DNA of 64,000 nucleotides from Octopus vulgaris (Eukaryota), in contig OX597814.1 of assembly GCA_951406725.2 (NCBI GenBank), positions 105,090,001 to 105,154,000 of the forward strand. Direction: 5' to 3'. A program made the position numbers and the translations under genes. Each line of letters starts with the position of its first letter. The stretch's first letter is position 1. Of the stretch, positions 20,561 through 59,962 are shown in pieces. The notes below the pieces were generated by a model, which was not told the DNA's origin, did no database searches, and worked only from the letters and a program-made list of their open reading frames with translations.

Positions 20561-20924
20561 TTTAAATAATGAGGGAGATAAATTAATATTAATTTTAATA
20601 TCAATTTAAAACCAGTAGTCCAGCATAAAGAAAATCTGAGAAGTCAGAGAAAATTCTAATATATGTGTATATTGGCAGGGCTTACTGCTAGGGAGTCGGC
20701 CGTATGCTAGAAATAGACCATCAACGATCAAACTACAAGGAAATTCTCTAGAGGAAAAATACAGCGAACACCAGAACCAAATTTGGCGGGCAGGACAGAT
20801 GAAAATTTATATAAAAAACAGAATGAACAGAATTTTTCCTCTAGAGAATTTCCTTGCAGTTTGATCGTTGATGGTCTATTTCTAGCATGCGGCCGACTCC
20901 CTAGCAGTAAGCCCTGCCAATATA
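20561..20924 (-). mobile_element. (TA)n-flanked element with ~92-bp inverted duplication (Penelope pLTR-like)
   Basis: Arms 20668-20760 and 20832-20924 are near-perfect. Carries the TTTCTA-stem/ACTGGT motif shared with the 25.7, 42.5 and 59.8 kb elements. Confidence 0.6.
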
Positions 20925-22848
20925 TATATATATATATATATATATATATATATATATATATATATATATATATATATATATATATATACATACATACATA
21001 CATACATACATATATATATACATACATACATACATACATACATACATATATATCCTTGTGTGCTTAGGTGGGGAGGAAGTGAGATACACAGAAAGCTACG
21101 CAGATTGTTAGATAGTCCGACAGACAGATAGATATACAGGCAGGCAGACAGATAGATAAATATATTTATATATATATATACATATATATATATACATACA
21201 TATATATATATATATATATATATATATATATATATATATATATACATATATACATATATATATATAAATATATACATTTTATATAGATAGATAGATAGAT
21301 AGATAGATAGATAAACAGATATATATATATATATAGATAGATAGATAGATAGATAGATAGATAGATAGATAGATAGATAGACAGATAAATAGATAGTTAT
21401 ATAGATAGATAAACAGATTGATAGATAGATAGATAGAGAGAGAGAGAGAGAGGTAGATAGATAGATAGATAGATAGATAGATAGATAGATAGATAGATAG
21501 ATAGATAGATAGATAGATAGATAGGCACTTAGGCAATTAGAAAGGTACTGAATGCTATAAGTAAGGCGTTCAATTTTTCTATATGGCCACCTCACCGGTA
21601 ATGAACGTGCAGATATGCTGCGGACTTTTGCTTGAATTTTGTACCTTCCATTACGTTCTCTCTTCTCTGTATGTCACGTGGCAAAATGTTCTCCAGTGGT
21701 TCAGCTTAGATAATTTTTAGAAGAGAATAGGGGCAAACCCTGCACATGCTTCTCATGAATTATCGGTGTTAATTGTCTCGTTACAACATTGCTTATTTTT
21801 ATCGAAACCCTGTCGGGATATAACCAAGACAACACCCTCAAAGGAGATTGTGAAAGTTTTTTTTGTCAAAGGTAGCATTTACTTCGTGTCCCTATGTTCT
21901 TCTCGAGGGAAACAGTCTATCACACACACACACACACACATACAAACACACGCACACACAAACACAAACACACACATACACACTTACACATACAACGTCT
22001 GTGTGCGTGTCTGTGTGCGAGCGTGTGTGTGTGTATTTGCATCCGTTAGATGCAACTGAACCGGTATTGAACAAAAACAGCCATCTCTGCACCATGCTCA
22101 ATCTATTTTAAATCGTTAAAAGGTCAATAAGTGCGGTATTTCCTCTTGATACAAATACCGCAGTAAACTGGTCTATCGGCGGTCTGTATATTACACTACG
22201 TATAATATTGTCTTTATATTCGTAACCGATCGAGTGTTAGACCATATGTTGAACTTCATACCACACACACACACACACACATATATAGATAGACAGCCGA
22301 CAACTTACTGCAATAAGAAATGGCTTAGCTTGGCTTCCATGTTCTTACCTGATGTGGCTGAGGTCATTCCAAGTTAGTGGTCCCAGAGGTGTCATCATGC
22401 ATAGAGCCGACCAGGTATACCAGAGCTCTTCGTCGCTGGTGCTCCCATGCCAGCCCCTCTGCAACCACCAAGGTGATGTTGAGCTTCTGGAGATCTCCTT
22501 CAATTCATGTCCAGCCAACTCGCAGCTGCTGCATTGAATGAGAGTAAAGCCCTGGTGTGATTATCTAGCAGGAGACATAGGACATGTCCGTACTCAGTGC
22601 GTGTGACAGATAGCTATGCAGTGGGAGCCTGTGCTATAATGCGTGTAGTTCTTTGTTGGAAACATGATGGTATTACCTGATGTTTTTGATGGTTCTCAGT
22701 GCTCTGCTAGCGACCGTTGATGAAGGATCGTTCTATGTGTTACTTGTCCTGTTTTCCATTTTTCTCATTGTTTGCATATTTAACTCGTTTGTGTTCCTAC
22801 TTCTTGTTGTTTACATGCATATATATATATATATATATATATATATAT

Positions 22849-23064
22849 AACGGGAAGCTTTATGAAAATAAACAAAAGACGAAGGCAGGTGGAATACAAA
22901 CAAACAATTGTATTAGTATGGCGCTCAGGAATATAAATAAAACAAGTCTTTTACGTTTCGAGCCTACTCTCTTCAACAGAAAGATACACAGAAAAGAAAC
23001 ACAGAAAGAAACAAGGAGAGAAAAAAAATGCGTGCAGAGGCTAGCGAATCAACATGGCGATCTC
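22849..23064 (-). mobile_element. Short (TA)n-inserted element with hammerhead-like motif at 22947-22984
   Basis: Minus strand: TCTTT|CTGTTGA|A|GAG-AGTAGG-CTC|GAAAC|GTA|AAAGA. Related to the elements at 41703 and 52369 (shared (G)CGCTCAGGAA segment and layout). Confidence 0.6.
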
Positions 23065-23169
23065 ATATATATATATATATATATATATATATATATATAT
23101 AACTTAGATAAACTTAGATATGTTTCGACCAAAGACTGGTCCAGGCCATGTCTAACTTAATATCACCAC

Positions 23170-56971: not shown

Positions 56972-57794
56972 AACAACAAACAAGATAAGGACAAATATCC
57001 GTCAAATGTAAATAATATAAATGAAGTTGATTTCTTCCACTGGTAAAAAGTGGGAAGTGATATTTACTATGAAGCTCAACGAAGACCTCCCCACCTCACA
57101 AAAGTTATCTTCGGTTTTTGAACATTTTTCTCCCATTGATGGCTGCCGTGTAGCTTTTGAGCAAGTTCGCTCGGCTTCATTCGTGGAGAATATAAACAAA
57201 CACTCAAAGTGAGATTTGATATAATTAATGTAAATGATGGAAGAATATTGTATTAATTAAGAATATTTCCGTAGTGAGGAGAACAAAATCATTAAATGAA
57301 TGACATATTTAATTTGATCTTGACTGTATGACAGATATTATCTTCAGGAGATTTACAGAGTGGTGGTGGTGGTGGTGGTGGTGGGAATGGAAGAGAAGGG
57401 AGAGAGAAGAGGAGAGAGAGAAAGAGAAACACACTGAAGGAGAAAGAGTGGAGTACAAAGACAGAAAGAGAGAATGGGAAGGAGCTACTTTTGAAAATAC
57501 ATTCAAAATTTTCGCTAATTTGCTCAGCAGTACATCCTTCAGTTGGCGATTGGTGAATAAAGAACTTATTTCTGATGTCGAATCTGTTGCGCAGAATTGC
57601 ATCGCTGCGACGTCAAGAAATGATGTTGAAATATTTTCAGGAACGGTTCAATAGAAGCATTTCTCAAACAGATACAGGACCAAATGCGTTTCAGCGACAC
57701 CAGTCGACTGTCTGTCAGACAATAATATTATCCATTGTTTCCTTCCTTTAAATTAGAAGAACTTTTCATGACATTTAGTTTCTATATCTAAATA

Positions 57795-58122
57795 GTGAGG
57801 GCACGTGGCTTAGTGGTTAGGGCATTCGGCTCATGATCGTAAGGTTGTGAGTTCGATTCCCGGCGACGCGTTGTGTCCTTGAGCAAGACACTTTATTTCA
57901 CGTTGCTCCAGTCCACTCAGCTGGCAAAAATGAGTTGTACTTGTATTTCAAAGGGTCAGCCTTGTCACTCTCTGTGTCACGCTGATTATCCCCGAGAACT
58001 ACGTTAAGGGTACACGTGTCTGTGGAATGCTCAGCCATTTGCACGTTAATTTCACGAGCAAGCTGTTCCGTTGATCGTATCAGCTGGGACCCTCGTCGTC
58101 GTAACCGGCGGAGTCTTTTTTT
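57795..58122 (+). mobile_element. tRNA-derived SINE with TSD
   Basis: GTGGCTTAGTGG box A, GAGTTCGATTCCC box B, T-tail; 12-bp TSD TATATCTAAATA (57783-57794, 58123-58134). Confidence 0.9.
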
Positions 58123-59301
58123 TATATCTAAATATGTTCAGCAAACAACGAATCGACCATGTTGCCTATGACATCGCTAAAAACAGGACTTCCCCATTAG
58201 TAAAAAAAAAAAAACCGGGTTAGGTATCTAAATACAACTATTACGAATGGACTGGGTATTGGGATAAGATTATCATAATAATGATGATGATGATGATGAT
58301 GATGATAATAATAATAATAATAATAATAATAATAATAATAATAATAATAATAATAATAATAAGAAGAAGAAGAAGAAGAAGAAGAAGAAGAAGAAGAAGA
58401 AGAAGAAGAAGAAGTAAGGGATGTGACGTAGTGTGTTCAGAAGTTACGAGTTAGAAATATTCAGTCAGTCTTGCGCATTAGGCATAAGGAGATTAACACC
58501 ATTTCTACAATTTTGTTGATACAAGAATAGGATTTAATCCCCGTGTTTGAGTAACCACAAATAAAGGGAGCACTCGTCTTCCAGTTCAATTTTGGAAGAG
58601 GGCTCGAAAATGTGTCCTAAATATTTCCTGGTCTGTAAGGTGGTTCACGATGCATTTCTCTTCCGTTCAACAACAACGTATTTAAAAACGGAAACAAATG
58701 GATTTGTGAAGCGTGTCGGATGATAAAAAATGTATCAGGCCTCGCATCCGTAATGTCCCTCCTTGTTATAAACATGCCATCGCACATCTGAGAATGTAAA
58801 CGTATTATGTGCCTGCAAAAGTTTCGATTGGGTGGAACTGAGTGAAACTGTTGGTAGATATTTATAACTGAAGCTAAAGATCTTGGACTCTAGTTTATTT
58901 CGTTTGTTCCCTTTGATAAATACAGACATACATACATACATACATACATACATACATACATACATACATATATATATATATAATAACGAAGGACTTGTAC
59001 GCAATATAAAAACAAAAAGGGGAAAGCACAACTTTTCCTAATTGTGACTGAAGGTGTTGAGTAGCACCTATATTGTTAGAAATATTATCATATTCTGACA
59101 AGCGAGATAACAGTCCCTGTTATCTCTTTTGTCAGTATATGATAATGTGCTTTCTTGCAGCTGAGAGGGTTTTAGGGTTTTAACTCTTATTTCTATCAGC
59201 ACACGTTCTGCACCATCGGTCCCAATGAGTGACAATTGTAATTTTCCTTTTGGGCTTTATATTGCGCAAAGCTGCCTTCGTTTTATATATATATATATAT
59301 A

Positions 59302-59962
59302 TATAATTAGAGTTCAGCTAACTGCTTCACCACATACCGAAATTAGAAGAAGGAGTTAAAAATTCCTTTTCTACTACTATAAGAATATACATGACGGTAA
59401 ACATACTTTTTAAATTTGAAATTATAAGTTACTCCATGATAGAATACTGCAGTTTTCTGCGGTATTGCTCGTAGCATACACGTGGGTATAGAGTTTGAAT
59501 AGTGTATTCACATTCGGCTCTGTAAAATTTGGAAGTGATGGTTGGATATCTGTTACATGATGACGCTCGATTGTGTGCATATTCAGCCCTTGCACTTTCA
59601 AATTTTATAAAAAACTGTAAATATTATACTGAAGAGAGAAGTAAGTAAAATTTAAATTAACTTTAATCTCGAAATGCGTATATAGTTAATCCTGGTCGTG
59701 TTGATTCAATGTTTTTCTCCTTGCCTTCGTAAAAAAGTATGTTTACCGTCATGGAGATTCTTATAGTAGTAGAAAAGGAATTTTTAACTCCTTTTTCTAA
59801 ATTCGGTATGTGGTGAAACAGTTAGCTGAAACCTAATTATAATTATGTAGATAATTTTACATATAAAGGCTATTTTAATGTACCGATCTACTTGGTAAAA
59901 TTATTAATCAATTGATTAATTTATTAATTTAATTAATAAATTTTATCCTTCTGTTATTAATT
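59302..59962 (+). mobile_element. (TA)n-flanked Penelope pLTR/retrozyme-like element with inverted 5' copy and hammerhead
   Basis: IR 59302-59411 / 59731-59841; hammerhead 59624-59685; TTTCTA-stem-ACTTGGT motif 59794-59896. Confidence 0.65.
59624..59685 (+). ncRNA. Type I hammerhead-like motif (CUGAAGA core)
   Basis: TTATA|CTGAAGA|GAGA...TCTC|GAAAT-GC-GTA|TATAG. Confidence 0.65.

Follow-up and report, generated by a model that had tools for sequence, protein, structure and literature searches.

A window of 64,000 nt from the Octopus vulgaris genome (GenBank assembly GCA_951406725.2, contig OX597814.1, positions 105,090,001 to 105,154,000, forward strand) holds four divergent elements that share a motif in which TTTCTA is followed by two complementary arms and ACT(T)GGT. 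The motif is a real feature. On our analysis it is probably, though far from surely, a covarying RNA fold of short, hammerhead-bearing tandem elements without open reading frames (ORFs), which would act as a putative binding and internal copying-start site for a Penelope-type reverse transcriptase (RT)/endonuclease supplied in trans; that the RT or the endonuclease recognizes the fold is what we infer. The carriers, with ORF-less units of about 490 and 545 nt, look like retrozymes that have no long terminal repeats (non-LTR retrozymes) or non-autonomous Penelope-like elements (PLEs).

The fold and its covariation

A sequence-only reading of the window had located the motif at four places, and all of these were recovered on the same strands: in E1 (20713->20571, −), E2 (25791->25648, −), E3 (42555->42698, +), and E4 (59794->59951, +). 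A composite pattern (TTTCTA; ACT(T)GG 70-135 nt later; at least six Watson-Crick pairs; CCYTC 30-80 nt later) occurred four times in the window, against 0.08 times without the CCYTC term and 0.0 times with it in 60 block-wise dinucleotide shuffles. Among at least 120 unrelated viral-contig loci with both sequence words, which served as a null sample only, two had a stem of at least six pairs.

The fold consists, in this order, of an enclosing helix P1, an inner hairpin P2, a TA-rich loop, ACTTGGT, and a hairpin P4. The inserts between the P1 arms had been described as unrelated, which proved to be wrong, as in all four of them P2 directly follows the 5' arm and a TA word comes a few bases behind it. 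The AT-rich tract and the CC(C/T)TC reported behind the motif were found in all four elements, and the tract itself is P4, a hairpin overlooked earlier and closed by the GG of ACT(T)GGT and the CC of CCYTC. ACT(T)GGT keeps the proposed fixed register with the stem (7, 7, 6, and 7 nt), whereas TTTCTA does not, lying 6, 6, 15, and 12 nt from an invariant G. A strict pattern scan of metagenomes returned ten loci, none with P1 or (TA)n and five within open frames of more than 100 amino acids, and these were judged to be chance matches.

With the register set by an invariant G-C pair, P1 was paired in 31 of 32 cells (eight columns in four elements), and sliding the arms by 1-3 nt left 6-14 of 32. 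Double changes were present in six of the eight columns, while the other two never varied. An element's own arms formed 6-8 Watson-Crick pairs out of eight, compared with 2-7 (mean 4.3) for swapped arms. This register was picked by eye; RNAalifold, run on a blind alignment, returned P1 as the only consensus helix, the same helix as in the by-eye register, with five of nine pairs compensatory. The G-U pairs of P1 and P4 fall on the hammerhead strand and would be C-A mismatches on the cDNA strand.

P2 has nine perfect pairs in E2, and in E1, E3, and E4 a base of three pairs is followed by a small internal loop rich in purines and then by an upper stem; the z-scores for E1 to E4 are −0.2, −6.1, −2.7, and −0.4. 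P4 is a near-perfect AT-rich palindrome (z-scores −5.0, −1.4, −7.0, and −3.3). The whole E4 unit folds with a z-score of −5.5, and P1 and P4 are retained in this fold.

A descriptor search found five type I hammerhead loci in the window, against 0.1 in shuffles: in E2, in E4, in the inverted copy of E3, at 55091 (H55), and at 60096 (H60, a relative of H55). The core of the E2 hammerhead is degenerate (CCGAUGA), and no hammerhead was seen in the truncated E1. Earlier, the motif had been placed about 100-110 nt behind a hammerhead in two elements. The spacing from the cut site to TTTCTA agrees with this (106 nt in E2 and 114 nt in E4), but the E2 hammerhead precedes the truncated second copy (25299) and not the full one. 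The number of elements with a hammerhead has also grown, as E3 has one in its inverted copy (42195->42152), and a short version of the motif (54935->54877, −) lies 78 nt behind another hammerhead in H55. H55 is a probable fifth family. It is counted as such because of the position of its motif behind the hammerhead; the relaxed descriptor that found the short motif gives 1.8 chance matches per shuffle and is weak alone.

The motif had further been read as a conserved RNA structure at the 3' end of the elements. The covariation, the strand of the G-U pairs, the hammerhead spacing, and the lack of DNA-transposon features all speak for an RNA structure conserved among PLE-type elements that bear hammerheads and insert into (TA)n. 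A simple 3'-end position, on the other hand, does not agree with a main copy end, which lies within the P1 loop, or with the tandem units, by which the motif is internal to the RNA.

Carrier elements and the ends of their copies

The copies end mainly at three kinds of site: site A lies inside the P1 loop, at 40-47 nt from the start of the motif and 2-12 nt behind P2; site B lies 10-12 nt behind CCYTC; and site C lies 15-35 nt after the hammerhead cut or its stem III. The elements and their relatives are laid out as follows.

20571..20713 (−): E1 full motif, with TTTCTA, P1 5' arm 20711-20703, P2 20701-20679, TA word, P1 3' arm 20627-20619, ACTGGT, P4, and CCCTC; the full copy ends 10 nt behind CCCTC (site B), in (TA)36 at 20489-20560
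20832..20919 (+): E1 inverted truncated copy, ending at site A, 41-46 nt behind TTTCTA (20879) and just 3' of P2, in (TA)34 at 20920-20987
25648..25791 (−): E2 full motif, with P1 25789-25782 paired to 25710-25703, P2 25780-25755 (9 bp), ACTTGGT 25700, and P4 25696-25648; reads through into the remainder of the 492-nt unit
25399..25475 (−): type I hammerhead of E2, degenerate, with its core starting at 25468 and a predicted cut at 25405; the following TTTCTA lies 106 nt downstream
25260..25366 (−): final direct-repeat copy of E2, truncated and 98% identical at an offset of 492 nt, with an ambiguous end at site A in (TA)4; abuts a 5'-truncated RTE-like long interspersed nuclear element (LINE) piece, then (TA)25
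42555..42707 (+): E3 full motif, with P1 42565-42575 paired to 42648-42658 (11 bp), P2 42576-42601, ACTTGGT 42659, and P4 42663-42695 (15 bp); the full copy ends 10 nt behind CCCTC (site B), in (TA)18
42122..42552 (−): E3 inverted copy, with the fold-back join at TTTCTA, running through the motif to a type I hammerhead (42195, predicted cut 42152) and ending 30 nt after the cut (site C)
41995..42121 (+): E3 left flank, one of two copies of a compound-microsatellite stretch of 127 nt, the other being the right flank at 42708-42834 (93% identical); taken to be a long target-site duplication
59413..59962 (+): E4 unit of about 545 nt, ending about 11 nt behind CCTTC (site B) in (TA)9 at 59963-59980
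59623..59686 (+): type I hammerhead of E4, with its core starting at 59629 and a predicted cut after 59680; TTTCTA lies 114 nt downstream
59794..59951 (+): E4 full motif, with P1 59803-59811 paired to 59878-59886, P2 59812-59833, ACTTGGT 59890, P4 59894-59947, and CCTTC
59306..59411 (−): E4 inverted truncated copy, 93% identical, ending at site A, 44-47 nt from the start of the motif, in (TA)11 at 59284-59305
54851..55100 (−): H55, with hammerhead 55091 (cut 55013), short motif 54935->54877 (P1 of 8 bp with three G-U, 3-nt linker, ACTTGA), and an AT/CA-rich end into (TA)13
16812..16876 (−): relative of H55, 78% identical over 63 nt, ending at site A, within the loop of P1 and ahead of its 3' arm, in (TA)19
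60058..60209 (+): H60, relative of H55, with hammerhead 60096 (cut 60174), ending 35 nt after the cut (site C) in (TA)9

E2 is made up of 1.24 copies of a 492-nt unit in direct tandem. E1, E3, and E4 each consist of two copies inverted head to head, whose outer ends are both at microsatellites; the inverted arms are of unequal length (about 90, 106, and 150 nt) and stop at different sites. Within E1-E4 there was no ORF of at least 120 amino acids and none for an RT with a GIY-YIG endonuclease; microsatellite and RTE frames overlap the edges of E1, E2, and E3. The elements combine retrozyme traits, namely type I hammerheads (degenerate in E2; also in E3, E4, H55, and H60) and a short ORF-less tandem unit, with insertion traits of PLEs, namely a partial tandem (pseudo-LTR, pLTR), an inverted 5'-truncated partner, an optional tail, and a microsatellite target. 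Matching retrozyme traits are described in PMC7229834, PMC4209133, and bioRxiv 10.64898/2026.07.22.740005, and partial tandems, 5' inversions, tails, and (TA)n targets are described for PLEs in PMC8557442. Two consecutive hammerhead units, a criterion of the bioRxiv paper, were found at no locus of the window, each locus having at most one hammerhead.

In public contigs from four of 24 sequencing runs, X1, X2, and X3 among them, E4 was multicopy, with 751, 679, 934, and 77 contigs under three organism labels; none of the runs containing it is registered as RNA. In X1 its summed depth was 1-5 thousand close to the 5' end and climbed to 45-53 thousand at the motif, with single contigs at a depth of 30-66, as would be expected from 5' truncation. 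Loose ends before 59413 in three runs resemble the tail of the E4 unit itself, from which we infer a tandem unit of about 545 nt. Among the 40 of 99 variant rows listed, the common E4 variants have a palindromic hammerhead stem III, a paired stem I, and a completed P2 pair, and they extend the match to E1 and E2 upstream of TTTCTA.

The window provided 12 outer ends, all from elements picked for carrying the motif. Four of them are at site A (E1, E2, E4, and the 16.8-kb relative of H55) and four lie behind ACT(T)G, at site B in E1, E3, and E4 and sooner in H55. Both sites run into (TA)n, the site-A ends into 4-34 TA units. The convergence of four families on site A is notable because the E2 and E4 units contain 11 and 10 TA words, respectively, and a main copy end inside the P1 loop points to internal initiation. 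In the public contigs, the depth over E4 dropped after 59848 (46k to 22k, 6.2k to 2.6k, and 42k to 22k), and some loose ends at 59853-59856 continued into TA repeats.

Two further observations were made on the E4 contigs. An opposite-strand joint, 59565/59833, was deeply covered (1846 in X1) and occurred in three runs, which suggests that there is a rearranged multicopy subfamily with its break at the P2 end. In X2 and X3 the depth peaked sharply over the TTTCTA stretch 59773-59810, and in X2 the majority letter at 59790 was a different one, as though some relative of greater abundance had only these 30-40 nt in common with E4.

Proposed mechanism and competing explanations

In the mechanism that we favor, tandem transcripts would be cut by the hammerhead into RNAs of about 500 nt, possibly circular. 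A PLE protein would bind P1, ACTTGGT, and P4 and nick both strands of a (TA)n target, whose 3' ends would pair over a few bases with the TA words that follow P2 or P4, giving two starts. Two cDNAs, one per nick, would then yield an inverted pair that stops at site A on one side and at site B on the other, the arrangement found in E1 and E4, and the stretch of about 100 nt between the two sites would be the PLE "tail" of this group.

The closest biochemical counterpart is Poseidon of the lizard Anolis carolinensis (Frangieh et al. 2024, PMC11167929), whose protein, a predicted dimer, cleaves AT-rich DNA on both strands and extends both. Its RT has two internal start sites, both within a stem-loop and located 111-118 nt into the ORF, 85-92 nt behind the hammerhead cut (at +26); RNA is required up to +172, and the two start sites define the genomic tail. 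The octopus elements are alike in the two internal end sites behind a hammerhead and in the AT-rich targets, and the proposed mechanism is alike in the need for RNA beyond the start and in the extension of both strands. In Poseidon, however, the start is an AC-rich stem-loop within the ORF and the tail is 30-40 nt, whereas the present elements have a non-coding multi-helix fold that covaries across families, TA words that match the target, and about 100 nt between the sites.

Several observations weigh against initiation within the fold. The Poseidon start is not homologous to its target, whereas pairing with the target is proposed here. Three of the 12 outer ends are at site C, outside the motif, and one, of a short inverted E2 piece, fits no site and has no TA; the E2 end at site A abuts an RTE-like fragment. 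Since the ends are located on TA words, microhomology by itself could account for their positions. The depth drop over E4 gives weak support because it is not monotonic and is partly reversed in X1 and X3, because the loose-end consensuses behind 59848 are mixed (agreement 0.57-0.85), and because the last 66 nt of E4 (59901-59966) were left out of the depth analysis as repeat. As to the fold itself, the four or five families are too few for R-scape statistics, four sequences give no significance value, and E1/E2 and E3/E4 resemble related pairs. The P1 pairs of E2 have a probability of 0.01-0.03 in the predicted thermodynamic ensemble because of competing pairings, P1 of H55 is absent from its minimum-energy fold, and P2 is weak in E1 and E4. 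The distance from TTTCTA to P1 is variable, and in E3 TTTCTA sits on the fold-back junction, where only three of its letters are unique.

No autonomous element with a clear motif was found in the window. The suggestion that full-length PLE ORFs might end in the motif holds for one published consensus, Naiad_Omin from Octopus minor, which has a (TA)n target. Its end carries TTTCTA, a 7-bp P1, an 8-bp inner hairpin, a 3-nt linker, and ACTTGGT 88 nt on and 22 nt from the end, with the pairing judged by eye; this consensus is flagged as incomplete and could have run into a neighboring insertion. No clear motif was present in the consensuses of five other Naiads, Naiad_Obim (3' part), Ovul, Esco, Adux, and Skow-1, nor was it seen in any of six Hydra 3' ends (two of them available as snippets). 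In the supplement of PMC8557442, 24 of 30 ACTTGGT occurrences were examined, among them ten of ten with a preceding C or T, and line breaks can hide others. A Naiad partner is therefore a lead that the sequence of a single consensus suggests.

Two endonuclease remnants lie in the window, neither of them clearly joined to the motif. The first, a 5'-truncated GIY-YIG remnant of Hydra type at 53000-53344 (+), had 507 relatives in an exhaustive search, the long ones with DKT and CxCx5C and without CCHH, a Hydra-like pattern; a word-based homologue search found none among longer proteins, and its alignment found no relative in viral contigs. The Hydra clade was at first favored as partner from this pattern and was dropped for want of the motif in Hydra 3' ends. 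The site-C ends and the hammerhead cores do resemble Hydra. The second, at 54170-54700 (−), is a decayed and frameshifted C-terminal remnant, Neptune-like by eye. An ACTTGGT at 53573 (−), about 600 nt behind it, lies in a small imperfect palindrome; with a weak stem, judged by eye, it was not counted, although it may be a decayed motif on a once-autonomous element. A possible decayed hammerhead was seen near 53850.

A bolder version of the favored mechanism, which we regard as doubtful, is that the fold would be the first structurally defined RNA docking site of a Penelope-type RT. P1 would present two target-complementary TA start words, one per dimer subunit, in a layout like that of telomerase RNA, and hammerhead-bearing circular RNAs of cephalopods would use the fold to hijack the hammerhead-less Naiads. 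If true, this would explain the PLE tail, the inverted insertions, and the retrozyme choice of motor.

The main rival, possible but in our view unlikely, is that the fold serves the life cycle of the RNA itself, through circle stability or ligation, hammerhead folding, or a host-protein site, and that copies end at TA words only since these are unpaired and anneal to (TA)n. Retrozyme RNAs are indeed highly self-paired circles (PMC7229834), the whole E4 unit is strongly folded, and site-C ends lie outside the motif. Nevertheless, four families end at the homologous loop position despite the 10-11 TA words counted per unit in E2 and E4, and the same fold ends the consensus of Naiad_Omin, a member of a clade without canonical hammerheads. 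If the fold only stabilizes an RNA circle, it would be a modest addition to retrozyme anatomy.

It is improbable that the structure acts instead in single-stranded or extruded DNA, as a cDNA or genomic copy, and signals the GIY-YIG endonuclease to cut or resolve an intermediate. The near-perfect AT-rich palindrome of P4 and the fold-back join of E3 at TTTCTA would suit such a role, and the endonuclease of D. virilis Penelope needed tail sequence for recognition (cited in PMC11167929). On the cDNA strand, however, the wobble pairs of P1 and P4 would be mismatches, and duplex DNA does not form a long-range helix whose arms are 70 nt apart. Still more improbable is a telomerase-like template, in which the RT would copy the TA word of the loop repeatedly, with P2 as boundary, and so make or lengthen (TA)n. 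The layout of enclosing helix, 5' hairpin, and short template is like that of telomerase RNA. The RTs of PLEs are a sister group of telomerase RT (PMC8557442), and site-A ends run into TA units. Against this, the (TA)n of E3 belongs to the 127-nt duplicated target and thus predates the insertion, cDNAs read through P2, and a preference for (TA)n targets is already described for Naiad, Neptune, and Hydra (PMC8557442). A functionless inherited remnant, or a sub-terminal repeat of a DNA transposon (a miniature inverted-repeat transposable element (MITE), Helentron, or Replitron), is scarcely credible and largely refuted: E1, E3, and E4 resemble palindromic MITEs at first sight, but there are no fixed terminal inverted repeats, the palindrome extent varies between copies, E2 is a direct tandem, the hammerheads, the 5'-truncation gradient, and the 127-nt target duplication of E3 are retroelement traits, and double changes in six of eight P1 columns are not expected from drift.

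Known systems and the setting of the window

The class of element to which the carriers belong is already known, while the shared fold and its relation to insertion ends appear to be undescribed. Metazoan non-LTR retrozymes (Cervera and de la Peña 2020, PMC7229834; Li, Clavereau and Pollet 2026, bioRxiv 10.64898/2026.07.22.740005) are alike in their ORF-less tandem units, type I hammerhead, low GC, long target duplication, and highly paired RNA, and in being derived from or mobilized by PLEs. They differ in their reported RNAs of 170-400 nt and repeats of 150-450 bp, compared with units of about 490-545 nt here, and in their long arrays, compared with 1-1.3 copies with inversions. The available passages of both papers describe no second conserved RNA domain shared across families.

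Among PLEs (Craig et al. 2021, PMC8557442), Naiads share the (TA)n targets and the tandem and inverted insertions, and the Naiad_Omin end has the same fold by eye. Unlike the present elements, they encode protein and have no canonical hammerheads, and the motif is unmentioned in the passages available. Hydra-clade PLEs share the (TA)n targets, have type I hammerheads of similar core and molluscan members, and three of their consensuses end about 35-50 nt behind the hammerhead, like site C; they differ in that the motif is absent from the six 3' ends seen. The hammerhead and reverse-complement telomeric repeat module of Athena/Terminon elements is alike in that a short target-complementary RNA stretch beside the hammerhead assists priming. 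Those elements are telomere-attached and have no endonuclease, while the present ones have internal (TA)n targets and the matching word inside an enclosing helix.

Rfam gave no match at the gathering score in the window and none in 59400-60250 at E-values up to 5 except microsatellite noise; it missed the hammerheads too, so its sensitivity is limited. ARAGORN found no tRNA. A literature search returned no published description of the motif, and the supplement of PMC11167929 had no matches; Repbase, most subscription journals, and the supplements of PMC7229834, PMC13282606, and bioRxiv 10.64898/2026.07.22.740005 were outside this search, and any of them may hold such sequences.

PLE RTs are the sister group of telomerase, and their choice of RNA, their tails, and their inversions are still poorly explained; the only in vitro study mapped a region and identified no conserved structure. 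The present fold covaries across families that otherwise have little in common and brackets insertion ends, and it offers defined pairs and words as targets for mutation in a kind of assay that already exists. The motif is also a sequence handle for pairing retrozymes with autonomous partners and for classing unlabelled repeats in cephalopod-type genomes.

The window is rich in (TA)n, (TATC)n, and similar repeats and contains LINE and PLE remnants. An 81% imperfect palindrome at 47938-48108, with ACTGGT and a P4-like arm at its center, was not counted as a motif, and there is another imperfect palindrome at 46555-46718 (77%). At 49628-50395 lies a large inverted duplication, nearly perfect (336-nt arms, 93%), in which copies of a common short repeat surround a microsatellite. 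LINE remnants of three kinds, with RT and zf-RVT matches, were found at 10686-13534, 18219-19219, and 36030-36848; at 37879-39777 and 61401-63175; and at 24860-25255 (RTE-like, abutting E2).

Four intronless ORFs on the forward strand were also noted. Two EF-hand ORFs, at 8754-9563 and 15905-16468, lie in a local duplication (8252-10663 versus 14928-18116); they presumably encode calcineurin B-like proteins and are possible retrocopies. Two cysteine-rich ORFs, at 3649-4302 and 28916-29863, are 70% alike in DNA and encode what we take to be secreted proteins of the CAP/SCP family.

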